From Escherichia phage vB_EcoS_ESCO30, in the sequence record NC_106513.1: a stretch of DNA of 64,000 nt; one strand, given 5' to 3'. The position numbers were made by a program, and so were the translations under genes. Below the pieces are notes generated by a model. The model saw only the letters and a list, made by a program, of their open reading frames with translations. It was not told the origin of the DNA and searched no databases. Every line of letters starts with the position of its first letter. Position 1 is the first letter of the stretch. Of this stretch, positions 3,898-58,814 are shown piece after piece.

Positions 3898-4425
3898 ATG
3901 GGTAAATATAAACATATTGATTATGAGACTGTTAATAAATACTTTTATTATGATGAATCATCGCCATCATTTCTAAGGTGGAAAGTAACGCGAGGAAATA
4001 AAAAGGCCGGTGATATTGCCGGATGTATTAATAACGATGGTTACTATACCGTAGGTTATGATTACGGTGTTTACAGTGTGCATCGTATCATATGGGTATT
4101 ATTTCATGGTGAAATAGATAGCGCCTTATTAATTGATCATATAGATAATAACCGGCTAAATAATAACATTAAAAACTTACGTTTAGTTGATCATATGCAG
4201 AATAATAATAATCGTGTTAATAGTAAGCGTGATAATGATTTACCTCGTTTTATTTATCGTAGTAGTAATGGCAAGCGTGATAGTAACGGACGTGATTATT
4301 TGCTGGCTCAAATTAGGATTCCTAATAGTAAGCGGCGCATTAGTAAGTCTGGTTATGATTTACCTACGTTACTAGATTGGGTGATCAAAAAATGTGCAGA
4401 GCATGGCATTCAGTATAATATTTAA
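3898..4425 (+). CDS. HNH homing endonuclease (175 aa)
   Basis: N-terminal YYDESSPSFLRWK and HRIIW motifs, DHIDNN...NLRLV HNH-type core; very AT-rich. Confidence 0.7.
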   Translation: MGKYKHIDYETVNKYFYYDESSPSFLRWKVTRGNKKAGDIAGCINNDGYYTVGYDYGVYSVHRIIWVLFHGEIDSALLIDHIDNNRLNNNIKNLRLVDHMQNNNNRVNSKRDNDLPRFIYRSSNGKRDSNGRDYLLAQIRIPNSKRRISKSGYDLPTLLDWVIKKCAEHGIQYNI

Positions 4426-4460
4426 AAGTCAAATATTTTATTTAATAAATTAACGCAATG

Positions 4461-4490
4461 CCCCTTGATTTTTATAAGTCAAGGGGTTTT
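4461..4490 (+). terminator. Rho-independent terminator-like hairpin (CCCCTTGA...TCAAGGGG + TTTT)
   Basis: GC stem followed by T-run just after the HNH stop. Confidence 0.6.
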
Positions 4491-4885
4491 CGTATTTATT
4501 TCATTTTTGCTTTTGTTAAATACTTGTTACATCGAAAATAAGCGGCCTAAAACGCCCTAGAAAGCGATAAAGTTTTCAGCCATCCCATCATAAGGGGGCA
4601 GCCCGTTTATCGTCACCTGATGGATTCTAGAAAAATCAAGTAGGGCAAGGCAAATATAAATGAAAAAATTACTTGCCTATCTGCTCGGTTTTATGGTATT
4701 CGCGCGCCCGTTTCTTTTAATTTTAGGTGAGCGCCGGACGCGGTGCGAGTATTTGCTTTCTTTACATTTCTTTACAAAAACAAGGTTGCACCTTTTTCGT
4801 TGTTTGCTATTATTTATCTCGTAGGGCGGCAATGACGAACTACACGGCGGTAAACTTCCCGCCGCGCTCTTTAAAAATTGGGTAT

Positions 4886-5164
4886 ATCTTAAAGCCTATC
4901 GGCGGTAAACTTATATATTATAAGGAATCGCAGATATGAAACAAACGCTTTTAATAACTGGTAAACCAGCTAAAAAATTGGATGGCAATACTAAAAAATT
5001 GTTGACAATAGCCCAGCAATCCGTAAAATACCGATTTGCGCAGTACAAGAAAGGCCGCCAGCAAGGTCTGGAAATGATCTGGCGCAATATTATGATCGAC
5101 CTGAAGGAAAATCATAAAAAACTGCAAAAAATAGTTTGACTTCCTAGCCGATAGGCTTTAAGAT
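4886..5164. repeat. Perfect 18-bp inverted repeat pair ATCTTAAAGCCTATCGGC (4886-4903) and its reverse complement (5147-5164) flanking ORF 4936-5139
   Basis: Read directly; right copy overlaps a TTGACT-17-TAAGAT promoter-like element. Confidence 0.7.
4936..5139 (+). CDS. Small basic protein (67 aa), flanked by the 18-bp inverted repeats
   Basis: ATG with AAGGA SD-like; Lys/Arg-rich. Confidence 0.4.
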   Translation: MKQTLLITGKPAKKLDGNTKKLLTIAQQSVKYRFAQYKKGRQQGLEMIWRNIMIDLKENHKKLQKIV

Positions 5165-5367
5165 GTACCCAGTTCGATAAGAGTGATAACTTGATAAAAT
5201 TTGACGGTCGGCACTTACCATAATGTGTCCCGCCCCCTAACTGGGATATAGCGGCCTGCGAGGAGTTCTTTAAATTGATTATAATGGCGAGTGGATTTTT
5301 TCTTATTATCTGCTACTTTCTAGCAGATAATGCGGAACAATCCGCTTAATAAACTGGAGTTTATACC

Positions 5368-5619
5368 ATGAAAAACGTTATTACCACGCCTAAAATTGGT
5401 CAATCCGTTTTCATTCCTTTCGTTACTAAAACGGACGAATTAACCGGAAAGGCCGAACGCATTAAAGGTGCGGCGCTTATGCCGTTTGATGTAATTGATG
5501 CGGTATACGCTGAAACGGAACGGAGTAACAACGGAAAAACTGTTTACAACGTTCGCGTTAAATCCGGCGACGTTGTAAAGGTTGCCCAGCGTAACGAAAA
5601 ATGGGAAGCTGTAGCGTAA
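5368..5619 (+). CDS. Hypothetical protein (83 aa)
   Basis: ATG with CTGGAG SD-like; followed by a hairpin at about 5631-5660. Confidence 0.5.
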   Translation: MKNVITTPKIGQSVFIPFVTKTDELTGKAERIKGAALMPFDVIDAVYAETERSNNGKTVYNVRVKSGDVVKVAQRNEKWEAVA

Positions 5620-5715
5620 TAGTGTTACTTTTATATGCCCCAGTAGTTCGGGGCATATAACGATTAACATTATGTTAATCTTATCCCTTAAATTAAATTA
5701 ACAGGAGCTATAATC

Positions 5716-6123
5716 ATGACTAACGTTAAAACCGCAAAATTTGCATGGAATGAAGAAAACACCCAAAAAGCTGTTTCTATGTATCAGCAATTAATCAACG
5801 AAAACGGTTTAGATTTCGCAAATAGCGACGGTTTAAAAGAGATTGCAAAAGCAGTGGGCGCGGCTTCTCCCGTGTCTGTTCGCTCAAAATTGACCAGCGC
5901 GAAAGCGTATCAGAAAAGCGATAAGCCTCGTAAAGTTGGCGGCGGTAGTTCTATCCGCAAAGCGCATTATGTGCGCGTTATTGCAAAACATGCGATCGAT
6001 TCCGGCATTATCAAAGACGCCGACGATCTGGCATCACTGGAAAGTGCAAAATTGGAAACGCTGGACGCCGTGGCGCAACTATTGGGCGTTGCCGATGAAG
6101 TAAAACAGGCCGCAGGCGAATAA
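5716..6123 (+). CDS. Putative HTH DNA-binding protein (135 aa)
   Basis: Motif EIAKAVGAASPVSVRSKLTSAK resembles the HTH module repeated in ORF 52460-53227. Confidence 0.5.
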   Translation: MTNVKTAKFAWNEENTQKAVSMYQQLINENGLDFANSDGLKEIAKAVGAASPVSVRSKLTSAKAYQKSDKPRKVGGGSSIRKAHYVRVIAKHAIDSGIIKDADDLASLESAKLETLDAVAQLLGVADEVKQAAGE

Positions 6124-6475: not shown

Positions 6476-8143
6476 ATGGTTATTTCCGCAGAAAAACAAT
6501 CCCAGATCATTAAACTTGCCGCTGATTTCAATTTCTATGGTAAACGTCTGCGCGCTACTAAACTGGAGGTCTGCGACGATATTTCAAAAGCGGTTTACGA
6601 TACTGCAAAATATTCCACCGCTATCTGCGACTGGTTGGAAGCAAATAAACCAGCGAAACCAAAAGCGGCGAAAGTAGCAAAAGCCATAAAAAACGACGAG
6701 CGCCCCGAAGCGGCTGGGATTGTTTCTAGTACCGTGGAACAGTGGGAAGTAAAACAAGGTAAACGCTTTATTATTACATCGATTCAGAATAATACTTTTC
6801 CTCATAAAAACTTTTTAGCCGCGCTTGAACAATATGCCCAATTTATCGGTGCTGATTTGCTGGTTAGCAAGTATATTTATAATAAAAACGGATTCCAAAA
6901 TGGTGAGGGCGCGGACGGAATCAAATATGATTCTGCGTTTGATAAATATATCTGCAATAAAAACGTGTTTTTGAATAATCGCCGTTTTGCTTTCATGGCT
7001 GAGATTAACGTGTTACCAACTGCAGATTATCCGCTGTCTGGATTCGCAGAAACTGCAACGGCTTTAAATATTGAAGGTCTGGCAATTGGTCACGCTAAAA
7101 TCACCGCCGAAAGCGTGCCAGCTTTAAAAGGTGAAGTAGTGCGCCGTATGTACTCAACCGGAACGGCGACGTTAAAAAACTACATTCAGCAGAAAGCAGG
7201 ACAAAAGGCCGAAGCGCTGCATAATTTCGGCGCGTTGATTGTCGAGTTCGATGAGGACGGTGAGTTTTTTGTTCGCCAGCTTGAAACAATGGATGAAAGC
7301 GGCATGTTTTATGATCTGAATGTTTGCGCTACTCCCGCCGGATGTTTTGAAACGTCCGATCATGTTTTAGGCTTGCAATATGGCGACATACACGCCGAAA
7401 AATTGGATGACGCTTGCGCCGTTGCGTCATGGGCTGGCGAAAATAGCTTGCTTGATATTCTCAAGCCTAAATATCAGTTTATCCATGACGTTCACGATTT
7501 TACATCGCGCAACCATCACAACCGCGCTTCTGGTGTATTCCTAGCAAAACAGTATGCCGCCGGACGTGATAAAGTTCTGGATGATCTCATCGATACCGGA
7601 CGCGTGCTGGAGTCAATGGAACGTGATTTTAGTCAAACAATCATTGTTGAATCAAACCACGATCTGGCGCTATCCCGTTGGCTGGATGATCGTAATGCTA
7701 ACATTAAAGACGACCCAGCAAACGCGGAACTATATCACCGCCTTAATGCTGCAATTTACGCGGCAATCGGTGATCATGACGATACTTTCAACGTGCTAGA
7801 TTATGCGTTGCGCAAGGTTGCAGGTTGTGAGTTTAATGCCATTTTCCTAACGACTGATCAATCTTTCAAGATTGCAGGCATTGAATGCGGCGTACACGGT
7901 CACAATGGCATAAACGGGAGCCGTGGCAATCCGAAGCAATTTAAGAAATTGGGCAAATTAAACACGGGGCACACTCATACCGCCAGTATTTACGGCGGCG
8001 TTTATACTGCTGGCGTGTCTGGTAGTCTGGACATGGGTTACAACGTTGGCGCGTCAAGCTGGACGCAAACGCATGTTATTACCTATGCAACCGGTCAGCG
8101 TACTCTGATCGACTTTAAGAATGGTAAATTTTTTGTACAGTAA
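6476..8143 (+). CDS. A1: A1-like pre-early protein, calcineurin/Mre11-type metallophosphatase nuclease (555 aa)
   Basis: Metallophosphoesterase motifs GDIHAE, ESNHD, GHTHT; size and position match my memory of T5 A1 (about 556 aa). Confidence 0.7.
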   Translation: MVISAEKQSQIIKLAADFNFYGKRLRATKLEVCDDISKAVYDTAKYSTAICDWLEANKPAKPKAAKVAKAIKNDERPEAAGIVSSTVEQWEVKQGKRFIITSIQNNTFPHKNFLAALEQYAQFIGADLLVSKYIYNKNGFQNGEGADGIKYDSAFDKYICNKNVFLNNRRFAFMAEINVLPTADYPLSGFAETATALNIEGLAIGHAKITAESVPALKGEVVRRMYSTGTATLKNYIQQKAGQKAEALHNFGALIVEFDEDGEFFVRQLETMDESGMFYDLNVCATPAGCFETSDHVLGLQYGDIHAEKLDDACAVASWAGENSLLDILKPKYQFIHDVHDFTSRNHHNRASGVFLAKQYAAGRDKVLDDLIDTGRVLESMERDFSQTIIVESNHDLALSRWLDDRNANIKDDPANAELYHRLNAAIYAAIGDHDDTFNVLDYALRKVAGCEFNAIFLTTDQSFKIAGIECGVHGHNGINGSRGNPKQFKKLGKLNTGHTHTASIYGGVYTAGVSGSLDMGYNVGASSWTQTHVITYATGQRTLIDFKNGKFFVQ

Positions 8144-8213
8144 GCCAATAAATTAAAACCTTATTTGCCTAAATCCTCCAATTAATGAGATAATATTAAT
8201 TGGAGGAATATAA

Positions 8214-8723
8214 ATGGCAAAAGAAATAGATTTTAATGAAGTTAACGAGAATGTTTATTATGATGAATCTAGCCCATCATTTTTACGATGGAAAATAAGT
8301 AAGCCCGGTGTAAAAGCGGGAAGTGTAGCGGGAACATTAAATCAGACAGGCTATTATGATGTAATGATTAACGGTGAATTATATAAAGCTCATCGTTTAA
8401 TTTGGGTTTTATTTAATAAAGAAATTAACCCTGATTTAGATATAGATCATAAAGTAATTTCTTACCCCGTTAACAACGATATAAATAATTTACGCCTAGT
8501 TACTCATGCGGTTAATATGACAAATAAGAGTGATTATAAAAGGCGTAATAAACTACCGAAATATATTTATCTTGATAAAGTTGATCCCATAGCGGGAGAA
8601 TATTACAGGGCAAAAATTAAAAACCCTATAACAAATAAATATGTTTCAAAAGGCAATTATGATTTATCTATTCTTTTAGAATGGGTTAAATCAAAGTGTA
8701 AAGAATTTAATATCCCTTATTAA
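8214..8723 (+). CDS. HNH homing endonuclease (169 aa), paralog of 3898-4425
   Basis: Shares YYDESSPSFLRWK, HRLIWVLF and NNLRLV motifs with 3898-4425; GGAGG SD. Confidence 0.7.
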   Translation: MAKEIDFNEVNENVYYDESSPSFLRWKISKPGVKAGSVAGTLNQTGYYDVMINGELYKAHRLIWVLFNKEINPDLDIDHKVISYPVNNDINNLRLVTHAVNMTNKSDYKRRNKLPKYIYLDKVDPIAGEYYRAKIKNPITNKYVSKGNYDLSILLEWVKSKCKEFNIPY

Positions 8724-8742: not shown

Positions 8743-9138
8743 ATGGCTATTTCTAACCGTATTCCATTCGATCGCGCTCAATCCTCAATTGTTCTGGTTT
8801 ATTCTAATGGTGAACGTTACCACGTCGAGGCGGGGCACGTTATTGATGAGCTATTGGACTTTAACGACGGCTTGCAGGTTACTACCTTTGCATATACCAC
8901 GGGCAAACTATCAAGCCGCATCAAGGCGAAAGGCGTTTATATTGACACGGTGAAACAAGAAACGATTATCATCGACGCCGTAAAATCCGGCCTTGCCTTT
9001 GCAGTTGTCGCGCCTTGCCCCGCTTGCCTTGATGATCAATTGATCAGCGCAAAAGTATATACTTGTGCGGGGATTCGTTCCAGCGTATCAGGTGAGGATG
9101 TTAGTTTTATCGCTGATGCGTTAGCATATGGCCTTTGA
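8743..9138 (+). CDS. Hypothetical pre-early protein (131 aa), possible A2 equivalent
   Basis: ATG with TGGAG SD; follows A1-like gene; assignment by position only. Confidence 0.5.
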   Translation: MAISNRIPFDRAQSSIVLVYSNGERYHVEAGHVIDELLDFNDGLQVTTFAYTTGKLSSRIKAKGVYIDTVKQETIIIDAVKSGLAFAVVAPCPACLDDQLISAKVYTCAGIRSSVSGEDVSFIADALAYGL

Positions 9139-9218: not shown

Positions 9219-9953
9219 ATGAATCAAGTTAAAATGAATATTACCCGTAATTTCCCGCATATTTCCCGCGTCATGATTTGGGATCTGGACGGCACTATCA
9301 TTAATTCGTTTCATCGTGTAGCGCCTTGCTTTGATAGCGAGGGCAATTTAGATTTAAATAAGTATAAAAATGAAGCCTGCAAACATGATTTAATAATGCA
9401 AGATACACTATTGCCCCTTGTTACATATATGCGCCAGTGCATGAATGACGCAAATACTTTAAACATTATTTGCACCGCTCGACTAATGAGCAAGTCGGAC
9501 TATTATTATTTGCGTAAACAAGGGTTGCGCGGTCGTGGTGATAGTAATATCCGCGTGTTTTCCCGCGATACACTACACAAATATTTTGAGGCTGATAAAG
9601 TTAGCGAGATATACCACAGCAAAGACGCAGTTTATAAAAGTTACTATTTTGGGTTATTCAAACAATTATATCCGAACGCTGATTTTACGATGATTGATGA
9701 TCATAAAGGCGTGCTATCAGCGGCGGCATCATACGGATTTAAAACGCTGGACGCGCAAGCCGTTAACGATATTCTATCAATCGGTGTCACATTGATAGGT
9801 GAAACCTTTATTGATGAATCTCTTGAGGATGATAATGATTATCAGTTCCTAGCCGACCGCCTGCAATTATGTTGGGAAGGTATGACCGAGGAGGAACGCG
9901 CGGAATATAGTTGCAGCCCGCAACAATATATTGAGAAATTAAAAGTTGCGTAA
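9219..9953 (+). CDS. dmp: HAD-family 5'-deoxyribonucleotidase (Dmp-like, 244 aa)
   Basis: N-terminal HAD motif MIWDLDGTIINS (DxDGT); pre-early position as in T5. Confidence 0.65.
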   Translation: MNQVKMNITRNFPHISRVMIWDLDGTIINSFHRVAPCFDSEGNLDLNKYKNEACKHDLIMQDTLLPLVTYMRQCMNDANTLNIICTARLMSKSDYYYLRKQGLRGRGDSNIRVFSRDTLHKYFEADKVSEIYHSKDAVYKSYYFGLFKQLYPNADFTMIDDHKGVLSAAASYGFKTLDAQAVNDILSIGVTLIGETFIDESLEDDNDYQFLADRLQLCWEGMTEEERAEYSCSPQQYIEKLKVA

Positions 9954-10007: not shown

Positions 10008-10117
10008 AGTTAGCATGGTAATAGTAACGGGGGTGGCGGTTAGCAGACTAAGTATTTTCGCCGGAGGCAGTGAGCACACCTTCATGTGTAATCTTATGAA
10101 ATTTCGAGATTTCCCAA

Positions 10118-13264: not shown

Positions 13265-13747
13265 ATGGCAAATGATGTATTAGTACCAGATCTTATGTCC
13301 CCTGAAGGGATGGATGTGATTGAAGCTTATTTACAGTGCGGCAGCGATGTGCCTTCTGCCGCACGTAGTCTTGGAATGTCCGAAATTGCTTTCCGAGATA
13401 TTATGAATCGTAGTGAAGTTAAGAACTACTTAAACGATATTTTTATGGAGAGTGGATTCCGTAACAGAGATCGTTTGTTCGGTGTTCTAGATGAAGTTAT
13501 TAAACGTAAGCTAGAAGAGCTAGAAGAAACTGGCATGGGTTCTGACCAGGATATTATGGATATTCTATGGAAGGCACACAAAATGAAGATGGAAGAAATG
13601 AAAATGATGGTAGAGTTAGAAAAAGCTAAAGCTGCCGTTCGAGCTCCTGCTAATCAGACCAATATCCAGAATAACATTATTGCTGGAGCTGGGGATCAAA
13701 ACTACATGGACTTAATCACTTCCCTAGCTACTGGAGGTAAAAAGTAA
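13265..13747 (+). CDS. Terminase small subunit (160 aa)
   Basis: AGGAGG SD; HTH-like [19 protein letters not shown]; stop overlaps terminase large start. Confidence 0.55.
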
Positions 13748-15063
13748 TGGAAGTATCAAGACCCTACGTTAACACAGTAGATGTTATTGATTTCGGAATA
13801 GACAAACGTTTCTTCCGTCTACCTGTTTCTGGAATACTAGCACAAGAGGGTATTACACCTAATGGCCCTCAAATAGCAATTATCAATGCCCTAGAAGACC
13901 CTAGACATCGTTTTGTAACGGCGTGTGTATCACGCCGTGTAGGTAAATCTTTTATAGCATACACACTTGGGTTCCTAAAATTGCTGGAACCTAATGTGAA
14001 GGTACTAGTAGTTGCCCCTAACTACTCACTGGCCAATATCGGATGGTCTCAGATTCGTGGTCTTATTAAGAAGTATGGCCTGCAAACCGAACGTGAAAAC
14101 GCTAAAGATAAAGAGATTGAGTTAGCTAATGGTTCTCTATTTAAACTAGCTTCTGCGGCTCAGGCTGACTCCGCAGTTGGACGTTCATATGATTTTATCA
14201 TCTTTGATGAGGCGGCAATTTCTGATGTGGGTGGTGATGCCTTCAGGGTTCAGCTGCGTCCTACCCTAGATAAACCTAATTCTAAGGCTCTATTTATTTC
14301 CACCCCTCGTGGAGGTAACTGGTTTAAAGAGTTTTACGCCTACGGATTTGATGATACGTTGCCTAACTGGGTATCTATTCATGGTACATATCGTGATAAC
14401 CCACGTGCTGACTTGAATGATATTGAGGAAGCACGCCGTACAGTTAGTAAAAACTACTTCCGCCAAGAATACGAGGCTGACTTCTCCGTATTCGAAGGCC
14501 AGATCTTTGATACCTTTAATGCTATCGATCATGTTAAAGACCTCAAAGGTATGCGTCACTTCTTTAAAGATGATGAAGCATTCGAAACGTTGCTCGGTAT
14601 TGACGTTGGTTATCGTGATCCTACAGCAGTTCTTACTATTAAATATCATTACGATACGGATACCTACTATGTGTTAGAAGAATACCAGCAGGCGGAAAAA
14701 ACTACAGCTCAGCATGCTGCTTATATTCAGCACTGTATAGATCGTTATAAAGTTGATCGTATTTTTGTTGACTCTGCGGCAGCTCAGTTCCGCCAGGACT
14801 TAGCTTATGAGCATGAAATCGCATCGGCTCCAGCTAAAAAATCTGTCCTGGATGGTCTAGCATGTTTGCAAGCGTTATTCCAGCAGGGCAAGATTATTGT
14901 AGATGCTTCATGTTCCTCATTAATCCATGCATTGCAGAACTATAAGTGGGATTTCCAAGAAGGTGAAGAGAAATTATCGCGTGAAAAACCACGTCATGAT
15001 GCTAACTCTCACCTTTGTGATGCGCTGCGCTATGGAATTTACTCTATTTCCCGTGGTAAATAA
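13747..15063 (+). CDS. Terminase large subunit (438 aa)
   Basis: Walker A-like RRVGKS, Walker B-like IIFDEAAI, C-terminal nuclease-like region. Confidence 0.8.
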   Translation: MEVSRPYVNTVDVIDFGIDKRFFRLPVSGILAQEGITPNGPQIAIINALEDPRHRFVTACVSRRVGKSFIAYTLGFLKLLEPNVKVLVVAPNYSLANIGWSQIRGLIKKYGLQTERENAKDKEIELANGSLFKLASAAQADSAVGRSYDFIIFDEAAISDVGGDAFRVQLRPTLDKPNSKALFISTPRGGNWFKEFYAYGFDDTLPNWVSIHGTYRDNPRADLNDIEEARRTVSKNYFRQEYEADFSVFEGQIFDTFNAIDHVKDLKGMRHFFKDDEAFETLLGIDVGYRDPTAVLTIKYHYDTDTYYVLEEYQQAEKTTAQHAAYIQHCIDRYKVDRIFVDSAAAQFRQDLAYEHEIASAPAKKSVLDGLACLQALFQQGKIIVDASCSSLIHALQNYKWDFQEGEEKLSREKPRHDANSHLCDALRYGIYSISRGK

Positions 15064-15234
15064 ATAAGTATAGGATGGGATACTACTCAGTTGGTATCCC
15101 ATTCCTGCATTTTAAAATCCCCTTTACAAATTCGATACGATTATGTATACTATATTCATTGATCGGGAGAACTTCTCCCATAATAGAACGTAAACAAGAA
15201 AAATTAATGCTCTACATGAGGTGTAGGAGATTCT

Positions 15235-15915
15235 ATGGGTCGACAAAAGCTAACAATAAAAGATATAAATATTAGATTAGCTGATCGTGGAATCCAAATT
15301 GTCGGTGAATATGTAAACCAACGTACAAAAACAGTATTTAAATGCCAGAGAGCACACGTTTGGGAAGCAACACCACATTCTATACTCCATATGAGGAGAG
15401 GTTGTCCACACTGCTCCAATAATACAATATCGTTAGATGAAGTTAGTAACAGAATATCTAGTATAGGATATACTCTGTTAAGCAGCTATACTAATGCTAA
15501 AACAAAATTACATCTACGCTGCAATAACGGGCATGACTGTTTCATTACCTTAGATGGATTGACTCAAGGTAAAAGATGTCCTTATTGCTCTCTTAAGTGG
15601 GAGAATGGCGGATTCCTCTATATCATGTCCTCCTCTAGCGGTACTAAAGTAGGCATAAGCTTATACCCTGAGAAACGGTTGAATGAAGTTAAAAGAGAAT
15701 CTGGATTTTCTGACCTGTACTTGTTCACCATGTATCATCTACCTGATAGAGAGACTGCTTTAGATTTAGAAAAGGAAGTTCACAGAGAATATTATAATAA
15801 AAACTGTGGGTTTTCTAATTTTACAGGAAGCACGGAATTTTTTAATGTTGCTCCTGAGGATATAGTAATCTTTCTAAGTAGCTTTGGATTGGAGGATTAT
15901 GGCCACCAATACTAA
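15235..15915 (+). CDS. T5orf172-domain protein with two N-terminal zinc-ribbon repeats (226 aa)
   Basis: Repeats KCQRAHVWE...GCPHCS and RCNNGH...KRCPYCS; C-terminal GFLYIMSS...KVGIS resembles T5orf172/GIY-YIG-like fold. Confidence 0.55.
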   Translation: MGRQKLTIKDINIRLADRGIQIVGEYVNQRTKTVFKCQRAHVWEATPHSILHMRRGCPHCSNNTISLDEVSNRISSIGYTLLSSYTNAKTKLHLRCNNGHDCFITLDGLTQGKRCPYCSLKWENGGFLYIMSSSSGTKVGISLYPEKRLNEVKRESGFSDLYLFTMYHLPDRETALDLEKEVHREYYNKNCGFSNFTGSTEFFNVAPEDIVIFLSSFGLEDYGHQY

Positions 15916-16336
15916 ATATAAACGTGATGCTATTTCCATAATGAGAGATGGTATAAAATCTAGGTATAGTAAGGATGGTTGCTGTGCTATATGTGGTAGT
16001 AGTGAAGACCTAGAACTTCATCACTATCATACTATATCTCAGCTAATAAAAAAATTTGCTAAAGAACTCCAGCTGGATTTCACTGATGAGAATATCGTCC
16101 TTTCAAATAGGGAAGCATTCTACAAGAAATATGAGCATGAGTTAGTTAGGGACGTGGTAACATTGTGCCAGCACCATCACCAATTATTACATAAGGTTTA
16201 CACAAAAGAACCTCCTTTATTTTCTGCTAATAAGCAAAAAGTGTGGGTTCAAAAGCAGAAAGACAAATTACAGAATCCTCAAGAAAAGACACAAGTCAAG
16301 ACTGAAACAAAATCAGGATTCGCAAGGTTCTTATAA
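15899..16336 (+). CDS. HNH endonuclease (about 145 aa)
   Basis: CCAICG...LELHHYH...CQHHHQLLH; start re-picked at ATG 15899 after GGAGG. Confidence 0.6.
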   Translation: MATNTKYKRDAISIMRDGIKSRYSKDGCCAICGSSEDLELHHYHTISQLIKKFAKELQLDFTDENIVLSNREAFYKKYEHELVRDVVTLCQHHHQLLHKVYTKEPPLFSANKQKVWVQKQKDKLQNPQEKTQVKTETKSGFARFL

Positions 16337-49519: not shown

Positions 49520-50381
49520 CTAAAATTTCAATACGTTTTGCTAACATATCAATTTCATCTTTGTTTAAATCACCCGGATCTTTACCTTCAGGCAGAAGAA
49601 AGTTAGCAACTACAGGTATTAAACGCGTTTTTGTACGAATTAACTTGGCCAACGCTTGTGCAGCCTTATTACCAGAAGCATCATTATCTAGTAAGATAAC
49701 AACAACTTTTACACCAGCAATAATATAAGGGCTGAACTTATCCGCAATGTTATCCGAAGTAAACTGATGTGTACCAAAGCAGCAAGAAGCGTAGTCTATA
49801 CCACTATCTTCTAGATTCAGCATATCAAAGATACCCTCAACTAGAATAAGAACTGGAGTATTATATCGTACAGGAAAAATTGGTGGTGAAACTTGTTTTG
49901 GTTTTACTAAGTATTTAGGAGGGGCAGAACTGTTTATAGAACGACCCAAAAATAGGATATTGCGTCCAACAGCATCTGTGATTGGGAATACAATTCTGCC
50001 TTCCCAGTCTGCTTGGTGTTGGAAAGCAAAATATTTCTTCAAGGTCTTAGAACTTATACCTCGGAAATCACCTTCGAAAAGGTAAGCAGATTCAGGAATT
50101 GCAAGATTCGTTGATCCATTCCTAATCTCTGAAATCTTTTTACGTACTTGCGATAGCCTTGGGGACTGTCGGTACTGAGTCTCATTAAAATAATGGTAAA
50201 TGCTCGGTATACCTTTACCGAAGCCACAACTCAAGCAGTGCATAATACCTGTTTCAGGGTCAATACGCAAACTTGGGTGTTTATCGTCATGATCTGGATT
50301 TAAGCAACAGATTAAAATATCTCCACCAGTATCTTTATACTCAATTCCCTTAAGATCAAGTAATTCTGTTATTCTACTCAT
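49491..50381 (-). CDS. DnaG-like primase (296 aa)
   Basis: Zinc-binding CCLNPDH...CLSCGFGKG, TOPRIM-like acidic motifs. Confidence 0.65.
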   Translation of the reverse strand: MSRITELLDLKGIEYKDTGGDILICCLNPDHDDKHPSLRIDPETGIMHCLSCGFGKGIPSIYHYFNETQYRQSPRLSQVRKKISEIRNGSTNLAIPESAYLFEGDFRGISSKTLKKYFAFQHQADWEGRIVFPITDAVGRNILFLGRSINSSAPPKYLVKPKQVSPPIFPVRYNTPVLILVEGIFDMLNLEDSGIDYASCCFGTHQFTSDNIADKFSPYIIAGVKVVVILLDNDASGNKAAQALAKLIRTKTRLIPVVANFLLPEGKDPGDLNKDEIDMLAKRIEILVAESLKDLV

Positions 50382-50908
50382 GAATTTAGCTCCTCCAGTG
50401 AAGGATACTTAGTTGGATCAAAGATCTCTTGAACAGCATTTTCTCCATGTAATTGTAGACGTAGTTCATTGGCTTTAGTGACTGCAAGCTTTAGATCTGC
50501 GTAATTAAAGAGCCCACCGTGAACTTTTTCTCCCGTAGAATTTACTACTCTTACATGCCATTTGTGATCCCGCTTAAACCAGAAAACTCCCAAGTATCCA
50601 GATTTACTTCTAGCTGTTTTATTTCTACTATTTTCTTGCCGGGTGGATGGCCTAATATTAATCCATCTATTATCCCAAGTAATTCGATTAATATGGTCTA
50701 CTTCCTCTGGCATATATCCTTCCATATATAGGAAGGCTAGTTGGTGTGCAAAGTATAATTTTCTATCTACCTTTATCCGTATGTATCCACTATCTAGAGT
50801 ACCCGCAATACTACCAGCTTTCTGATTGCCTCTAGATACTTTTCTAGTAAACTCCCCAGTCTCTGGGGAGTAGTCAAACAGTTCTTTTAGTCGTTCCTGT
50901 GTTATCAT
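50378..50908 (-). CDS. HNH-AP2-type homing endonuclease (176 aa)
   Basis: HQLAFLYMEG...VDHINR...NIRPSTRQEN and AP2-like YLGVFW; inserted between primase and helicase. Confidence 0.65.
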   Translation of the reverse strand: MITQERLKELFDYSPETGEFTRKVSRGNQKAGSIAGTLDSGYIRIKVDRKLYFAHQLAFLYMEGYMPEEVDHINRITWDNRWINIRPSTRQENSRNKTARSKSGYLGVFWFKRDHKWHVRVVNSTGEKVHGGLFNYADLKLAVTKANELRLQLHGENAVQEIFDPTKYPSLEELNS

Positions 50909-52459: not shown

Positions 52460-53227
52460 TTATTCAGCAGCCGCAGCTTTTGCATCCAGTTTAGCACGCT
52501 TAGCGGCACCATCATAGTCCTTAGCAACCAGACCACGACGAGACAGCATAGATTTAACACCGCGCTCAGATTTACCAGTTTTCTCAGCGATCTCAGCAAC
52601 AGTCATGTTAACCAGATCCAGGCCTTCTAACAGATCTTCACGAGTTTTAGCACTTGAGGTTTCCTGTACCGGCATAGCAGCGATACGACCTTCACGAAGC
52701 AGACTCAGAGCTTTACCGCGGATCTGCTTGATATTACGACCGAAGTGAGCAGCGATAGCTTCAATAGTAGCACCAGCAACAACCTGATTAACAAAATCAG
52801 TTTCTTCATCCGGAGTGAAGGAACGAACAGCAGCAGCTTTTTCGGTTGGCTTAACAGAAGCGGTCATTTCCAGACTCAGGATCTTACCCTGTACCTGTTT
52901 AGCACCGAACTGACCACCAGCTACAGCAGCAGCGATTTCAGCATAGGTATACTGACCAGCATGAGCATTCAGGAAATCAACCAGTTCAGCTTCCTGCTCA
53001 GGAGTCCACGGGGATTTCTGTACTTCGTTAGCTTTTTGTACTTCGAAACCTTCTTTACGCAGCTTAGAGCCAACAGAGCGAGCGGTAACGTCTTTGCCAG
53101 TTTCAGCAGCCAGTTCAGCGGCGATAGCAGCTACTTGTTCTTGAGAGATTACATCAACACCCAGAGCAGTGGCTTTTGCTTTCAGAGACTCGGTTACACC
53201 TTCTACGTTCCAGTTCAGTTTAGACAT
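52460..53227 (-). CDS. DNA-binding protein with four tandem HTH (sigma region-4-like) repeats (255 aa)
   Basis: Four repeats of about 45 aa matching T-P-E/D-x-E...AEIAA...G...K.LSL...G read from the translation. Confidence 0.55.
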   Translation of the reverse strand: MSKLNWNVEGVTESLKAKATALGVDVISQEQVAAIAAELAAETGKDVTARSVGSKLRKEGFEVQKANEVQKSPWTPEQEAELVDFLNAHAGQYTYAEIAAAVAGGQFGAKQVQGKILSLEMTASVKPTEKAAAVRSFTPDEETDFVNQVVAGATIEAIAAHFGRNIKQIRGKALSLLREGRIAAMPVQETSSAKTREDLLEGLDLVNMTVAEIAEKTGKSERGVKSMLSRRGLVAKDYDGAAKRAKLDAKAAAAE

Positions 53228-53999
53228 TATTATTTTTCTCCAATAGTTCTTTAATCGACAGGATTTCTATCCCATTCGTTTCGGCTTTCTTATAAGATGA
53301 GGAAGAACGCTTCGATTCATCCTCACAGATTAGGTATTTGACGTCTTTGGTAACGGATTTCTTAACCGTATATCCTAGACCTTCTAAATAGTTTGTTGCA
53401 TCCGTTCTATTTGCAAAATCTTGCAAAGATCCGGTAATACACACCGTGATTCCATTTGGCTGGGCAACTAATTCATCTGTAATGATGTCAGCTTTAGCAC
53501 CCTTAATACCATTTGAGAATTTCCACGGTAGTTCGATAACATCCTTGCCTTGTGGGGAACTTAGCCAGGCTTTATAATTTTCTCCAGCCTTGCCGTCAGC
53601 CTTCACATCGTGGAAGCTAGTGCAATTTTGGGATAATTTCTTTGCTGCAACCTCTCCAATTAGAGGGATTCCTAAAGAACCGAGAACTGAACCAAAGTCA
53701 ATGTCTCCGCGAACTTTAGTATTTAATTCGCTAATTAACTTAGCGGCAACCTTGCTACCCACGGCTCTAACCAAATCTTCTTCGGTTAGGTAAAACAGTT
53801 CTGAAATCTTCGTCAGCTCCAGCTTCTCAATAGTTTTTGGGCCAAAGCCCTTTAACTTCATTTTTGAACAGAAGTTCTCAATTAACTTACTTGATTGCGC
53901 TGGACAGTTGGACTTATTCCGACAGAATAATTGTCCGTTGACAAGATCTAGCTTAGAACCACAAGAGGGACATTGTGTTGGAATTTCGATTTTCATCAA
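53220..53999 (-). CDS. NAD-dependent DNA ligase, C-terminal subunit (Zn finger, HhH, BRCT; 259 aa)
   Basis: CPSCGSKLD...CRNKSNCPAQ zinc finger, GFGPKTIEKL HhH; adjacent to adenylation subunit. Confidence 0.7.
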   Translation of the reverse strand: MMKIEIPTQCPSCGSKLDLVNGQLFCRNKSNCPAQSSKLIENFCSKMKLKGFGPKTIEKLELTKISELFYLTEEDLVRAVGSKVAAKLISELNTKVRGDIDFGSVLGSLGIPLIGEVAAKKLSQNCTSFHDVKADGKAGENYKAWLSSPQGKDVIELPWKFSNGIKGAKADIITDELVAQPNGITVCITGSLQDFANRTDATNYLEGLGYTVKKSVTKDVKYLICEDESKRSSSSYKKAETNGIEILSIKELLEKNNNV

Positions 54000-54198: not shown

Positions 54199-55170
54199 TT
54201 AATCGTATACTCTCTCTACTATGCACGGGATTACACCACCAGCACGAATCACTCGAATCTGGCAACCGATCTCTAGATCAAGAGAGTTAATATAATCAAC
54301 GTTATTAAGAGTCGCTTTAACAATTGTAGCATCATCAATAATTACCGGTTCGAAATAACCAACTGGAGTTACTTTACCAGAAGCCCCTACCTGCCATTCA
54401 ACTTTAGTAAGAGTTGTAATCTCGCCTTCTTCATCCTCTTTAATAGCGAATGCCCCGCGAGGGAATTTATTAGTCCAGCCTTCTCGGAAGAATTTGTTGT
54501 TGTCATTAATACGAACAACTTTACCATCCGTCGGAATCCATTTAAAGAAGGAACGCACATTAACAACTGTTAAGAAGTTCTCATTCTCTAGCCAGAGCAT
54601 ATCTTTTAAATACGATTCTGTAATACCTACAGATTCAGCAGAACATTGGATACCGTATGCAACGAAGATTAAACCACCTTCCCCGATACGTTGTGCGAAA
54701 TCATCGCTATCTTTGAGGTTAATAGCACCAGAGGCAAAGTTACGTTTATTTTCTACTTCTTTTGTAATTAGAACTTCACCAGTGATTTGAGTAGGTACTT
54801 TTTGGGAAATCTTTTTAGGGATGTTCAGCAATCTTACGTTGCTTGTGACATCATTCCCTAGAATACCATTACCACGAGTTAGCGCTTGAACAAATTCGCC
54901 ATTAATATATAACAGAGAAATCGCACAACCATCTAACTTATCAGTTTCTACCTGACCTAATGGGTTAAACGGAGGTTTATCTCCACGATTATAATAAACT
55001 TTCTGTAAAGAATACATACGATACAGATGTGGAATATCACCCTTAGGCCCGATCTCTTCCTCTAATGGGAAGCGTTTTACCAGGCGATCATATTCTTCAT
55101 CAGAGATTAAAGACATGCCTTGATAATATGCTTCTTGACAGCGTTTAATAAATTCTTTTACATTGGTCAT
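54199..55170 (-). CDS. NAD-dependent DNA ligase, N-terminal adenylation/OB subunit (323 aa)
   Basis: Adenylation motif KLDG (TDKLDGCAI); LigA-like N-terminal region. Confidence 0.75.
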   Translation of the reverse strand: MTNVKEFIKRCQEAYYQGMSLISDEEYDRLVKRFPLEEEIGPKGDIPHLYRMYSLQKVYYNRGDKPPFNPLGQVETDKLDGCAISLLYINGEFVQALTRGNGILGNDVTSNVRLLNIPKKISQKVPTQITGEVLITKEVENKRNFASGAINLKDSDDFAQRIGEGGLIFVAYGIQCSAESVGITESYLKDMLWLENENFLTVVNVRSFFKWIPTDGKVVRINDNNKFFREGWTNKFPRGAFAIKEDEEGEITTLTKVEWQVGASGKVTPVGYFEPVIIDDATIVKATLNNVDYINSLDLEIGCQIRVIRAGGVIPCIVERVYD

Positions 55171-55230: not shown

Positions 55231-55236
55231 ATACAT

Positions 55237-55548
55237 TTATTCTTTTTCCGCCAGGCGTCTAGCTTCTTTTTCTACTTCTAATAAAACCTCACTATTAGAC
55301 AATATTTTAGTAAATGCCTTAAATAAATGAGATGTTGTTTCTAGAGTGTATGGCATACTGAATCCACTTTTTGTTGGAAACCATTCGCCTTCTATATCTT
55401 GGAGCCAGTACCTAATTCCTAAGTATAGATTCCCCCTAAACTCAGATACAGTTAGCCTAACCTGTTGGCCATCTTCTCTTTCCCAGATAACTATGGACTG
55501 ATCATCTACATGCCCAACATAATCCTGATTTACATTATCTCCCGACAT
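55237..55548 (-). CDS. PC4-like ssDNA-binding protein (103 aa)
   Basis: Segment RLTVSEFRGNLYLGIRYW...PTKSGFS resembles the PC4/p15 fold signature. Confidence 0.45.
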   Translation of the reverse strand: MSGDNVNQDYVGHVDDQSIVIWEREDGQQVRLTVSEFRGNLYLGIRYWLQDIEGEWFPTKSGFSMPYTLETTSHLFKAFTKILSNSEVLLEVEKEARRLAEKE

Positions 55549-56195
55549 TTTATTGCTCCCTGACTTAGGAGATATTCCTCTGCCTCCTCTGGTTGAATAT
55601 TAAAAAACTCAGTAGAACCATCAAATATTGATTCTGTAAATATCTGTGTAGTACTAAAAAATCTATGAGCTTTATTTTCTAGATTATACGCTGACTCATC
55701 ATAAGAGTATACTCCATGTATACTCAAGTCCTCCAGATTAGAGTCTTTTTTGATCTCTAAAAGTCTTCTATCTGGACTTTTAGATGTTCCTATTTTTGTT
55801 CCTAACCGTGGACTATAGAATATATACAAATAGCTTGTAGTTACACAAATAGGACAAGACCTTCCTGCATTTTTAACTTTATCCACGCTACTAGTCCACC
55901 TATGCCCCTCTGCACACTCGAATACTGCTTGACTATGTGCATTGATATAGGGAGGTATAAGTTTTATGCCTCTATTGGCTAATTGTTGATTTATTTGCTC
56001 TATAGTAAGTTTAGCTTTACCGCTACAATGTGGGCAACCACTGCCTTTTCTTATATTATTTAGGTATGCCTTCCACTGGTGGCCTTTTGAGCATCTAAAT
56101 ATGGCGGGTGTTCTTATGTTAATCCACTCACTTACTATACTAAAACCTCGCGGCTCTAATTCTTTATTTATTTGCTTTACTGTTAACTTTTTCAC
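55530..56195 (-). CDS. T5orf172-domain protein with two N-terminal zinc-ribbon repeats (221 aa)
   Basis: RCSKGHQWK...GCPHCS and ECAEGHRW...SCPICV repeats; C-terminal YLYIFYSPRLGTKIGTS; paralog of 15235-15915. Confidence 0.55.
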   Translation of the reverse strand: MKKLTVKQINKELEPRGFSIVSEWINIRTPAIFRCSKGHQWKAYLNNIRKGSGCPHCSGKAKLTIEQINQQLANRGIKLIPPYINAHSQAVFECAEGHRWTSSVDKVKNAGRSCPICVTTSYLYIFYSPRLGTKIGTSKSPDRRLLEIKKDSNLEDLSIHGVYSYDESAYNLENKAHRFFSTTQIFTESIFDGSTEFFNIQPEEAEEYLLSQGAIKCREIM

Positions 56196-56214
56196 TATAA
56201 CCCATATACAGCAA

Positions 56215-56232
56215 AGGAGAGCCGAAGCTCTC
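56215..56232. repeat. Hairpin GGAGAGCCGAAGCTCTCC; its reverse complement is identical to the capsid terminator stem at 20092-20109
   Basis: Read directly; T-run on plus strand only. Confidence 0.6.
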
Positions 56233-56242
56233 CTTTTCTTTA

Positions 56243-56533
56243 TTATTTTTTGCCTACTGGCGTAGCTCTATCAAGTTCACTAGACAATGAAGTGATACGT
56301 TTCACCTTATTTACAGGAATAAATCGGAAGCTGTCATTAGTGCGACTAAACACTAGAATTTCGTCATCTTTTGGTTGACGGATACGCTCCTGAGCAAAAC
56401 GTTTACTTAGGTACTTATCAGAAAAATCCATAGTACCCTGAAGGTACGTAGTACCTTTTTGGCGTAGTTTCTCATAATGAAGGTAGAACTCATTATGGGC
56501 TTCACATGCGGAGATAATTTCTTGTTTGTTCAT
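56243..56533 (-). CDS. Hypothetical protein (96 aa)
   Basis: ORF in early operon; no motif recognised. Confidence 0.4.
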   Translation of the reverse strand: MNKQEIISACEAHNEFYLHYEKLRQKGTTYLQGTMDFSDKYLSKRFAQERIRQPKDDEILVFSRTNDSFRFIPVNKVKRITSLSSELDRATPVGKK

Positions 56534-56547
56534 GTATAATCTCCCTA

Positions 56548-56958
56548 TTACTTAGTGATAGCTCGGATCGCTTCTGCCAGATGAGCAGCCGCTTTACCGG
56601 TCAGTTTGTCGATAATTGCATCATCCAGAAAATCTGGTGCTAAGCCAGCATCAGAGAATGCTGAACGAAGGTCGGCATGGGCTTGAGCTTTGGAGGTACG
56701 AGAGCCACCGGAAGCTTTTTCTCCAGTAGATGCGCTAGATTTAGAAGCAGAACCAGCAGCTTTCTTAATATACAAGCCCGCTTTAGTCAGCTTCATACGA
56801 AAACCGTTCGGAGTTACACCATTTTCCTGGGCAATTTCGCTAACAATTTCCATGCTAACACTCGGACGTTCATCCTCTGGGAATTGCTCCATACGAGCAA
56901 CGTATTCGGAAGACATTTTTTCGAACAGTTCATCAGTCCACTGAGTTGGAGTAGTCAT
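56548..56958 (-). CDS. Putative HTH DNA-binding protein (136 aa)
   Basis: Single copy of the EIAQENGVTPNGFRMKLTKAG module seen in ORF 52460-53227. Confidence 0.45.
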   Translation of the reverse strand: MTTPTQWTDELFEKMSSEYVARMEQFPEDERPSVSMEIVSEIAQENGVTPNGFRMKLTKAGLYIKKAAGSASKSSASTGEKASGGSRTSKAQAHADLRSAFSDAGLAPDFLDDAIIDKLTGKAAAHLAEAIRAITK

Positions 56959-57015
56959 ATTTTATATTTCCTTAATTAAGAATTAAACAGAATAGTTCTT
57001 TCAAACTATGAGAAT

Positions 57016-57044
57016 ATTATATCAAGAATTGTAGGATTAAGCAA
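57016..57044 (-). promoter_or_regulatory. Sigma70 promoter TTGCTT-17-TATAAT
   Basis: Minus-strand reading, upstream of ORF 56548-56958. Confidence 0.65.
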
Positions 57045-57064
57045 CTGAAATTTTTCGGTAATTG

Positions 57065-57325
57065 CTACACGTCTAGCTCAACAATCTCCCAATCATCCGC
57101 TAGAGCTTCATCTAGAGTTAATTCAACCTCTTCATCACTGGGCAGCAGCGTAGTATCTGAAGGCATCCACACGTACTGGCGTACAGTATTGCTGTCTACG
57201 TCAAATTTCAATAGTACAGTATACTCTCTATTATTTTCCCAGCTATCCCGCTGGAGATATTTTACTTCCCCATCTTTAAGTAAATCAGTTAGTCTACTCA
57301 CGGCGTTTTCCTTTTTCTTTATCAA
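57065..57325 (-). CDS. Hypothetical acidic protein (86 aa)
   Basis: ORF only. Confidence 0.4.
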   Translation of the reverse strand: MIKKKENAVSRLTDLLKDGEVKYLQRDSWENNREYTVLLKFDVDSNTVRQYVWMPSDTTLLPSDEEVELTLDEALADDWEIVELDV

Positions 57326-57998
57326 GTTTCAAGGCGGCCTTAACAGCTTCGTTAATCAACGTAATGACTTCTTCCCGAGTCCACTTATACCCCAGAGACT
57401 TTACATCAACCCCTAACTTTTCCAGGTGTTTAACAGAAGCCAGTTCATAATTCATATAATGAACGTTCTGTTGTTTGCCTTCTGATAGAAGCCATACACG
57501 GTAACAACCAACAGGGTTATCCATTGCTTTTTTGATTTCACCGATACACTGGTATCCAGGAACCCAAACAAGCTCACCTACCTCAAATTCTTCTGCTACA
57601 GCATCGTCAGGAATAATTGGTGGATTCAATGGATCTACAATATCGTTCAAACGAAGTAGAGCACCATATCGTTCCAGAACAGATTTAACCATTGCTACAG
57701 AGCGATAATTACGATCGGCAATCTCTTCAAAAGAATCACCAGATAAATACTGCTCAATAACGTTGGCTAACTCAATGCCTTCAATGAGTGTGCCACGTTT
57801 CTTTTTCTTCATCTCGGCAACTTGAATTTGGCGATCTTGCCACTCTTCAATCATCCTTTCCATAGTTGGATTGGAGGATACTCCGAGCATTTCACATGCT
57901 GCTTTCTTAGTACCACCGTTCTCCAGATGCTCTATAACTTTTTTAAAGACTTCATCCGGGATTTCATGGATATGTTTCTTTCTGCGAGAACCAGCCAT
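57294..57998 (-). CDS. Putative HTH-containing early regulator (234 aa)
   Basis: HTH-like GTKKAACEMLGVSSNPTMERMI; first gene downstream of the P_N25-like promoter. Confidence 0.55.
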   Translation of the reverse strand: MAGSRRKKHIHEIPDEVFKKVIEHLENGGTKKAACEMLGVSSNPTMERMIEEWQDRQIQVAEMKKKKRGTLIEGIELANVIEQYLSGDSFEEIADRNYRSVAMVKSVLERYGALLRLNDIVDPLNPPIIPDDAVAEEFEVGELVWVPGYQCIGEIKKAMDNPVGCYRVWLLSEGKQQNVHYMNYELASVKHLEKLGVDVKSLGYKWTREEVITLINEAVKAALKLDKEKGKRRE

Positions 57999-58029
57999 AT
58001 TTAAACTCCTCTCTCAAATTTATGAATCT

Positions 58030-58058
58030 ATTATACAGAAAAATTTTCCTGAAAGCAA
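58030..58058 (-). promoter_or_regulatory. Strong sigma70 early promoter TTGCTT-17-TATAAT with A/T-rich UP-like region (matches my recollection of T5 P_N25)
   Basis: Minus-strand reading gives AAATTTATTTGCTTTCAGGAAAATTTTTCTGTATAATAGATTCATAAATTTGAGAGAGGAG; identity to P_N25 is from memory. Confidence 0.75.
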
Positions 58059-58066
58059 ATAAATTT

Positions 58067-58300
58067 TTACGATTCCTTGAGCAAAGAAGAAAGTTCAGCA
58101 TATACTTTATCTAATTCAAACCCTATGCGAAGAGATACGTTAGTCCTCCGTTGTTTAAGTAACCACTCGGATATGTTAGGGATGCCAGCTAGTCTGTGTG
58201 GTACCACCCTACATAGCTTTTCCGAAGTATCGTAAGCAGGAACTTTACGCTCTTTTACTGGAAACTTCCTTGTTTCCCATTTTTTATTCTTCACTGTCAT
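58067..58300 (-). CDS. Hypothetical basic protein (about 77 aa)
   Basis: Track ORF trimmed to internal ATG at 58300 with GGAGAG SD to limit overlap with the HNH gene. Confidence 0.35.
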   Translation of the reverse strand: MTVKNKKWETRKFPVKERKVPAYDTSEKLCRVVPHRLAGIPNISEWLLKQRRTNVSLRIGFELDKVYAELSSLLKES

Positions 58301-58814
58301 ATCTCTCCGAGGGATTAAATTCACCAAACAGCTCTTTAACTCCCCTAAGGTATAGCTGATGGGCTTCTTCCGGGGTATCTCGTCTACCAAAAATATGCTG
58401 CTTTCCATCGCAGTAAGCGTAGGCCATATACCTATTACCTCGTTTTACAACTCCAGTGAATCCGGTAGAATTAGTAGAACACTTCTTATTCTTTCCATTT
58501 TCGGAATAGGTAGCCTTACGTAAATTATCCCACAAGTTATTTAAACTATCACCGTCTTTATGGTCGATAGTTTTATCTCCAGGATCTTCGCCTGTCTTTA
58601 TAAACCAGATTATTCTATGGGCTAAGTAAGCTGTCCGCTCCCCATTTATCGTAAACTCTAGTTGTCTCCCAGTTTTCATTTTGGAGCCCGCTACCTTTCC
58701 CTTCCTTGGGCCAGATAACCAAATTAAGTCCCCAGTACTTTCGTCATACCTAAGCTTTTCTAGGATAAATGCCATAGGAGGCATTGGTTTATGCGTCTTC
58801 ATTAGTTGCTCCAA
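58284..58814 (-). CDS. HNH-AP2-type homing endonuclease (176 aa)
   Basis: AHRIIWF...IDHKDGD...NLR and AP2-like GFTGVVKRGNRYMAYA. Confidence 0.65.
   Translation of the reverse strand: MEQLMKTHKPMPPMAFILEKLRYDESTGDLIWLSGPRKGKVAGSKMKTGRQLEFTINGERTAYLAHRIIWFIKTGEDPGDKTIDHKDGDSLNNLWDNLRKATYSENGKNKKCSTNSTGFTGVVKRGNRYMAYAYCDGKQHIFGRRDTPEEAHQLYLRGVKELFGEFNPSERYDSEE

Follow-up and report, generated by a model that had tools for sequence, protein, structure and literature searches.

Homing-endonuclease-like genes and a conserved T5-type nicking endonuclease gene in Escherichia phage vB_EcoS_ESCO30

We analysed a 64,000-nucleotide stretch of Escherichia phage vB_EcoS_ESCO30 (NC_106513.1; hereafter the window), a segment of a T5-like phage of the family Demerecviridae, and in particular seven open reading frames (ORFs) that a first-pass annotation had listed as five HNH and two T5orf172-type homing-endonuclease-like genes. 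All seven were found at or very near the positions given there, and all seven proteins match vB_EcoS_ESCO30 residue for residue. They very probably represent two kinds of nuclease gene, namely six free-standing homing-endonuclease genes and one conserved T5-type nicking endonuclease gene in the morphogenesis module. Four of the five HNH genes (HNH_3 by Pfam) and both T5orf172-type genes of the earlier count are thus retained, and the ORF at 15899-16336 is a gene of the other kind. What is shown here is the family to which each gene belongs, its motifs and fold, the boundaries and polymorphism of the insertions, the linkage of flanking blocks, and the conservation of the nickase and of the nick motifs. 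The seven genes are listed below, with sites 1 to 6 numbering the positions of the six mobile genes.

3898-4425, plus strand: HNH1, free-standing HNH_3 gene of the inferred terminal repeat, lying in the pre-early divergent promoter region (site 1)
8214-8723, plus strand: HNH2, free-standing HNH_3 gene between A1 and the T5 ORF153 homolog (site 2)
15235-15915, plus strand: T5orfA, T5orf172-type homing-endonuclease gene (site 3)
15899-16336, plus strand: T5-type nicking endonuclease (His-Me/HNH enzyme) between terminase and portal, not mobile
50378-50908, minus strand: HNH4, free-standing HNH_3 gene at the point where the DnaB-like helicase and primase genes overlap in a stop/start ATGA (site 4)
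55530-56195, minus strand: T5orfB, second T5orf172-type gene, between the PC4-like gene and a 96-amino-acid ORF (site 5)
58284-58802, minus strand: HNH5, free-standing HNH_3 gene at the 3' end of the origin-binding-protein gene, ortholog of T5 hegI (P-TflIX) (site 6)

Six polymorphic genes and one resident gene

Four ORFs (3898-4425, 8214-8723, 50378-50908 and 58284-58814) match HNH_3 above the Pfam gathering cutoff of 24.8 bits, with scores of 54.9, 26.7, 46.2 and 47.5 bits and E values of 7e-15, 4e-6, 3.5e-12 and 1.4e-12 in that order. The motif D-H...N...N...N is invariant in all four proteins (D80, H81, N89, N93, N102 and N105), and HNH1 also falls in PHROG 99. The start of HNH5 is likely to be the ATG at 58802 (519 base pairs (bp), as in T5) rather than the TTG at 58814. 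T5orfA matches MUG113 (36.2 bits) and T5orf172 (35.4 bits), and T5orfB matches DUF4379, MUG113 (40.2 bits), CapR and T5orf172 (25.3 bits), where the cutoffs for MUG113 and T5orf172 are 22.3 and 20. The two proteins are 35% identical and share one architecture, with two treble-clef/CapR zinc fingers and a C-terminal T5orf172/MUG113 domain. CapR and DUF4379 each match two stretches in both, BLAST detects an internal repeat in a T5orf172-type protein (residues 2-60 against 59-117, 39% identity), and the T5orf172 nuclease domain has a GIY-YIG-like fold. An NCBIfam scan of all seven proteins gave no meaningful family, its sole match being a zinc-ribbon far below cutoff. Self-tblastn of the window (E<=10) and a Pfam scan of the remaining larger ORFs revealed no further paralogs or fragments of these nuclease families, which rules out that the window hides additional homing-gene copies.

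Close relatives were defined as 29 phages with a terminase at least 95% identical, 25 of them scorable at site 1, and indel boundaries were taken from BLASTN against T5, BF23, NR01, NBSal005 and HdH2. GenBank-wide tblastn counts are out of about 560-600 T5-like records, GenBank/RefSeq duplicates included. The comparison of insertion sites with HNH-free relatives, which the first-pass annotation had proposed as a check, showed the six genes to be polymorphic at the same sites, with BF23 empty at all six, and each of them is confined to a minority of T5-like phages GenBank-wide. The four HNH_3 genes are free-standing ORFs at intergenic junctions. Insertion between conserved genes, claimed earlier for the HNH genes, could be placed to the base for these six genes, and the claim fails for 15899-16336, which is a conserved resident. 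These sequence comparisons support the view that six of the seven behave as free-standing homing-endonuclease genes.

At site 1 the indel boundaries are 3814/3819-4423/4428. Thirteen of the 25 scorable relatives are filled there, always by diverged or truncated HNH copies with less than 80% amino acid identity to HNH1, and copies at least 99% identical occur only in phages PH204 and H8 (two ortholog records GenBank-wide). T5 hegG (P-TflVII), at the same terminal-repeat site, is 62% identical to HNH1. The indel of HNH2 is 8135-8700/8717, with a junction gap of 40-49 bp in the empty BF23 and NR01. HNH2 occurs in four of the 29 close relatives, and 17 GenBank records hold it at at least 90% identity. 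The two pre-early copies had been called AT-rich paralogs, and rightly so: they are 47% identical in amino acid sequence over their full length, and their guanine-plus-cytosine (GC) contents are 33.0% (HNH1) and 29.0% (HNH2), compared with 39.0% over the whole window and 44-47% in the pre-early genes next to them. The lowest-GC 520-bp stretch of the 64 kb is HNH2 itself. At the homologous A1/ORF153-homolog junction (region of 8135-8700), T5 (L108) and NBSal005 (L088) have a short ORF of about 260-280 bp, of ORF154 type; the T5 copy aligns weakly (60-75% nucleotide identity) with part of HNH2 and could be what is left of a homing gene after decay.

HNH4 (indel 50381-50905) is inserted exactly at the helicase/primase ATGA overlap, and the junction sequences show the overlap re-formed on both sides. 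BF23 and 20 of the 29 relatives are empty at this site, and the other nine hold a 65-71% identical allele of the T5 type. An ortholog 98.9% identical to HNH4 is annotated in phage mar003J3 as hegJ_2/P-TflX; GenBank-wide, 10 records are at least 80% identical and 109 are 60-80% identical. In PH204 the HNH1 copy is identical to that of the window, but the site-4 HNH is only 71% identical. In one T5 record (L007, AY587007; 5882-6410) only a 225-bp ORF111 is annotated between primase and helicase, and tblastn recovers 123 amino acids of HNH; another T5-derived contig (L071) gives a full 176-residue match, which points to either a strain difference or a sequencing frameshift. HNH5 (indel 58304-58799) ends in the same 17 nucleotides as the origin-binding-protein gene of BF23. 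It is missing in NR01 and BF23, three of the 29 relatives carry it, and three more carry a different HNH at the same site. Altogether three HNH lineages were found at site 1 and two at site 6. HNH5 is 98.8% identical to T5 hegI, with 22 GenBank records at at least 95% identity.

T5orfA (indel 15159-15898) is present in full in eight of the 29 relatives and as an internally deleted remnant in two more, with 80 ortholog records in GenBank. T5orfB (indel 55533-56313) is absent from T5 and BF23, present in three of the 29 relatives, and represented by 10 GenBank records at at least 80% identity. NR01 also contains two genes that the window lacks, an HNH gene directly after dmp (L004, 8169-8705) and a 189-bp ORF (L006, 10661-10849) that lies between ligA and the PC4-like gene. 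Other insertion sites consequently exist that are empty in the window.

The recent acquisition suggested earlier for the AT-rich copies can be restated as recent horizontal spread. It fits HNH2 and also HNH5, because both are near-identical among carriers and their DNA varies less than that of the flanks. Among carriers, the 100-bp bins of HNH2 are 96-100% identical and its flanks 76-97%, and HNH5 is 96-100% identical to the copies of T5 and phiAPCEc03 at the same site.

The seventh gene, at 15899-16336, has a different history. All 41 related contigs that could be scored, including relatives whose terminase is only 53-60% identical, have it between the terminase and portal genes. It is therefore a core gene and not a mobile one, contrary to the earlier description of it as homing-endonuclease-like. 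Its protein has no significant Pfam match (best HNH_2, E=0.58) and no similarity to the four HNH_3 proteins. It is about 98% identical to the chains deposited as 'Nicking endonuclease' in PDB entries 9QGV and 9QGX (E 5e-95; 142/145 residues). One of the three differences is at position 42, where the window has His and the deposited chains have Gln or Ala, presumably as engineered catalytic mutants. The Cys/His cluster is retained, with a CxxC...HH...CxHHH motif of His-Me type. The protein falls in the same 90% cluster as T5p149, under the UniRef name 'Nicking site-specific endonuclease'; its homolog is annotated as a nicking endonuclease in BF23 (BF23_00167) and several other records, and the T5 homolog is T5.153.

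Some results should be set against this division into six mobile genes and one resident nickase. HNH2 barely clears the HNH_3 cutoff (26.7 against 24.8 bits), a PDB sequence search with HNH4 gave no match at E<=1, leaving the HNH_3 proteins without a sequence counterpart in the PDB, and no NCBIfam family covers the HNH_3 proteins. The occupants of sites 1 and 4 in relatives are only 51-71% identical to the window copies, and turnover or replacement at these two sites is part of the picture, beyond plain presence and absence. Literature searches did not find the primary paper behind the name 'nicking endonuclease' or behind 9QGV/9QGX. Moreover, the diverged blocks considered in the next section could stem from ordinary modular recombination without any action of a nuclease.

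Diverged blocks beside three mobile genes

Sharply bounded diverged flanks accompany T5orfA, T5orfB and HNH5:

15900-16180, plus strand: diverged block linked to T5orfA, nickase codons 1-94
55237-55548, minus strand: diverged allele of the PC4-like gene, left flank of T5orfB
56243-56548, minus strand: diverged allele of the 96-amino-acid ORF, right flank of T5orfB
58800-58880, minus strand: diverged 3' end of the origin-binding-protein gene (last 27 or so codons, about 80 bp), linked to HNH5

In the first block, every genome without T5orfA is 72-79% identical to the window per 100-bp bin, T5orfA carriers are 92-100% identical with the exception of SP01 (76-83%), and identity is at least 95% from 16180 onward. 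Synonymous (dS) and nonsynonymous (dN) divergence are 1.53 and 0.19 over nickase codons 1-94, as compared with 0.23 and 0.025 over codons 95-145; since dN/dS in the block is about 0.13, both nickase haplotypes look functional. Amino acid identity of the nickase is 88-100% in all 10 genomes with T5orfA or a remnant of it, whereas 18 of the 19 genomes without T5orfA are at 81-86%. The window has the T5orfA-linked haplotype and BF23 the other, with 77% amino acid identity over residues 1-94. The two remnants (L014 and L023), in which the region homologous to 15400-15800 is internally deleted and T5orfA is about 320 bp shorter, have kept the carrier-type nickase haplotype and resemble a selfish gene decaying in place.

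The blocks at the other two sites are similar. Genomes without T5orfB show 55-80% nucleotide identity per 20-bp bin in the PC4-like gene, where carriers show 97-100% per 100-bp bin and the boundary coincides with the end of the gene. On the right side they show 60-89% per 20-bp bin in the 96-amino-acid ORF, and identity is back to 94-100% from about 56560. One recombinant exception, contig L067, has the carrier-type right flank without T5orfB. In the block beside HNH5, genomes without this gene are 66-70% identical (73-85% in the bin at 58800), the carriers T5 and phiAPCEc03 are 96-98% identical, and identity is at least 93% from 58880.

Intron-less homing offers a common explanation. The enzyme would nick or cut the DNA of a co-infecting relative with an empty site, close to that site, and recombinational repair from the carrier genome would then copy the gene together with a stretch of flank into the relative. 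Such a process would explain the patchy distribution, the near-identical copies in diverged phages, the deleted remnants and the bounded flank blocks, the last being the pattern expected if the enzyme cuts within the adjacent gene and co-conversion takes in the interval. Cleavage, homing and nicking are activities that we infer for this phage. Nuclease genes have been reported at the boundaries of genetic exchange (PMC10448857).

For T5orfA we can be more specific, albeit tentatively and with slightly less than even confidence. It may home by cutting the nickase gene near 16180 in genomes that lack T5orfA, dragging along its own first 94 nickase codons, that is, the whole catalytic core. Two ancient nickase haplotypes (dS about 1.5) would then exist, and the selfish element, not what the nickase does, would set their frequencies. 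Similar reasoning would hold for the three-gene cassette around 55530-56195 and, beside 58284-58802, for the 3' end of the origin-binding-protein gene. The tight linkage between T5orfA and the diverged catalytic half of the nickase gene is seen here, we found no description of it, and it is the only modestly new element of this analysis.

Three features would fit ordinary modular recombination between phage lineages, with the blocks lying beside nuclease genes by coincidence: the block boundaries at site 5 are gene boundaries, L067 has a carrier-type right flank without T5orfB, and T5-like genomes are mosaic in general. We nevertheless consider coincidence rather unlikely, given the near-perfect linkage at the nickase gene (10/10 versus 18/19), the recurrence of the pattern at three independent sites, always abutting a mobile gene, and its agreement with the description of phage homing genes at exchange boundaries (PMC10448857).

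The six genes could also have been domesticated and serve the phage, for example by excluding the alleles of co-infecting relatives or by an early attack on competitor or host DNA. The strongest candidates for such a role are the pre-early copies, two genes in the first-step-transfer region that are expressed first; roles of homing endonucleases in phage competition and immune evasion have been reported for T4 and T6 (PMC2330249; PMC13096335). However, every one of the six is dispensable insofar that close relatives lack it, and truncated or internally deleted copies are common, which fits a selfish cycle of gain, decay and loss. Domestication appears improbable to us, and we retain the interpretation of selfish homing genes.

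Nick sites and the origin of virion nicks

The first-pass annotation had proposed that some of the HNH genes account for the site-specific nicks of T5-type DNA. Two T5 nick-site sequences could be located in the window:

108-115, minus strand: T5 major nick 1/5 site sequence, conserved (CCCTGCGC when read on the plus strand of T5; annotated in T5 AY587007 as 'major single-stranded nick 5')
41952-41958, minus strand: T5 major nick 4 site sequence CCCGCGC, conserved, inside the D13 gene (T5 feature 'major single-stranded nick 4')

The nick 1/5 site and its flanks match T5 exactly, the surroundings of nick 4 are 99.5% identical to T5 over 207 bp, and BF23 has both sequences as well. Across the 64 kb there are only four occurrences of the loose pattern GCGC(N)GGG, namely the two nick sites and those at 11633 (plus strand) and 1925 (minus strand). 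BF23 has been reported to carry specific nicks like those of T5 (PMC10644984). Because BF23 lacks all six mobile genes and yet is reported to be nicked, with its nick-site sequences kept, T5-type nicks can be explained without the mobile genes. The earlier proposal consequently survives only for 15899-16336, whose product is the candidate enzyme behind the site-specific nicking of virion DNA. It was also considered whether the two nickase haplotypes differ in nick-site specificity; this was judged unlikely, since both nick-site sequences are retained in BF23 although it has the other haplotype.

HNH_3 is a family that includes nicking enzymes, so the mobile HNH_3 proteins themselves might make some of the virion nicks. 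In favor of this, the T5 HNH enzymes F-TflI, II and IV were characterised as site-specific endonucleases (Akulenko 2004, as cited in PMC2330249), though they belong to the tRNA region, outside the window. Against it, BF23 is reported to be nicked without having mobile genes at these sites, each of these genes is present in a minority of T5-like phages, and a dedicated, conserved nickase exists, all of which makes a contribution of the mobile enzymes very unlikely. Weakest of all is the proposal that all five HNH genes are mobile homing endonucleases lodged between conserved genes: 15899-16336 does lie between terminase and portal, adjoins a clearly mobile T5orf172 gene and has the His-Me type motif, but its presence in 41 of 41 scorable contigs, down to a 53% identical terminase, already refutes mobility, and its lack of sequence relationship to the four HNH_3 proteins and its near-identity to a solved nicking endonuclease leave this idea scarcely credible.

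Genome context and comparison with known systems

More than 560 related phage records were found by megablast, the top relatives being 92-95% identical across 90-97% of two large test regions. The gene order of the window is reversed relative to the T5 reference, with the pre-early genes first and the replication genes on the minus strand after the head and tail genes. Its conserved genes include the following:

5716-6123: A2, upstream of A1
6476-8143: A1
8743-9138: T5 ORF153 homolog, hypothetical protein, downstream of A1
9219-9953: dmp, followed by llp/pb5
13265-15063: terminase genes
16336-17553: portal, followed by head and tail genes

The ORF after A1 had been labelled as being in the A2 position; this has to be corrected, as 8743-9138 is the ORF153 homolog and A2 itself lies upstream of A1. 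Compared with the annotations of T5 and BF23, the pre-early region up to about position 10070 corresponds by homology to their long terminal repeat; the first base of the window lies about 360 bp inward from the T5 right end, and the repeat seems to stand beside the late genes. If the repeat does end near 10070, HNH1 and HNH2 would both occur twice per virion genome.

Four further observations concern genes outside the mobile set. The D14 homolog (40432-40914) also has a nuclease fold and is conserved; its Pfam match is PDDEXK_15, 'phage putative PDDEXK endonuclease' (E 2e-47). Two genes (53220-53999 and 54199-55170), separated by a spacer of about 200 bp in which T5 has promoters, encode the NAD-dependent DNA ligase; adenylation and OB domains are in one gene and zinc-finger, HhH and BRCT domains in the other, a known feature of T5. 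An L-shaped tail-fibre-like protein of 1309 amino acids (34916-38845) consists over a long N-terminal stretch of near-repeats such as SETNAKASETAAKT. Neighbouring paralogs at 62367-62759 and 62769-63197 have two DUF7415 stretches each, and a HAD-family gene (63200-63706) comes next.

The load of homing genes in the window had been called high. It is not unusual in view of the literature, in which T5 itself is credited with nine HNH homing endonucleases, as against none in the T5-like phage Stitch (PMC4319617), and in which homing genes with T5orf172 and CapR domains are abundant in T5-like phages, often near terminase genes (PMC10448857). Our observation is real but ordinary. The public record of vB_EcoS_ESCO30 already names most of the seven as endonucleases ('HNH homing endonuclease', 'HNH endonuclease', 'putative endonuclease' etc.), and the nickase structure is already solved. 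Little is changed in the general view either, as homing endonucleases are recognised as the main contributor to gene-content differences among T5-like genomes (PMC10644984). The value of the analysis is corrective: one conserved nickase is told apart from six selfish genes, the A2 label is fixed, and mobile HNH genes are not required to explain T5-type nicks. In addition, the linked haplotype blocks give testable cut-site predictions for three enzymes, of which the block in the nickase gene is the clearest. Should the cut sites be confirmed, this would be a small and tidy addition to what is known of selfish nucleases shaping phage mosaicism.

The closest known counterparts of the HNH_3 genes are T5 hegG/P-TflVII and hegI/P-TflIX and mar003J3 hegJ_2/P-TflX, which belong to the same family and occupy the same genomic sites. 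Unlike in T5, the window has diverged alleles at sites 1 and 4, with 62% and about 66% identity to those of T5, and HNH2 is without an intact T5 counterpart, its type being found in phages Shivani, SHSML-45 and HdH2. For the nickase, one comparison is with HK97 gp74, a small HNH protein of packaging modules that is encoded beside terminase and portal genes. The likeness of 15899-16336 to gp74 is one of gene position only, with no sequence match seen and no search aimed at one made. The window protein is named and solved as a nicking endonuclease. Its direct relative is the T5 nicking endonuclease (T5p149/T5.153; 9QGV, 9QGX), from whose deposited chains it is separated by three substitutions.

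Other comparisons concern biochemistry and mode of spread. The characterised enzymes F-TflI, II and IV (Akulenko et al. 2004) are relatives of the HNH_3 enzymes of the window. T5orfA and T5orfB correspond to the CapR-type T5orf172 homing endonucleases described by Barth, Dunham & Seed 2023 (PMC10448857), with the same tandem zinc fingers and C-terminal T5orf172/GIY-YIG-fold domain, the same preference for terminase and replisome neighbourhoods and the same tie to exchange boundaries; the window members are those of an Escherichia T5-like phage. Finally, the intron-less homing of T4, by Seg and Mob enzymes such as SegB (PMC2330249), involves other enzyme families than HNH_3 and T5orf172, but the two systems have in common free-standing genes between conserved genes, a patchy distribution and the co-inheritance of flanking markers.

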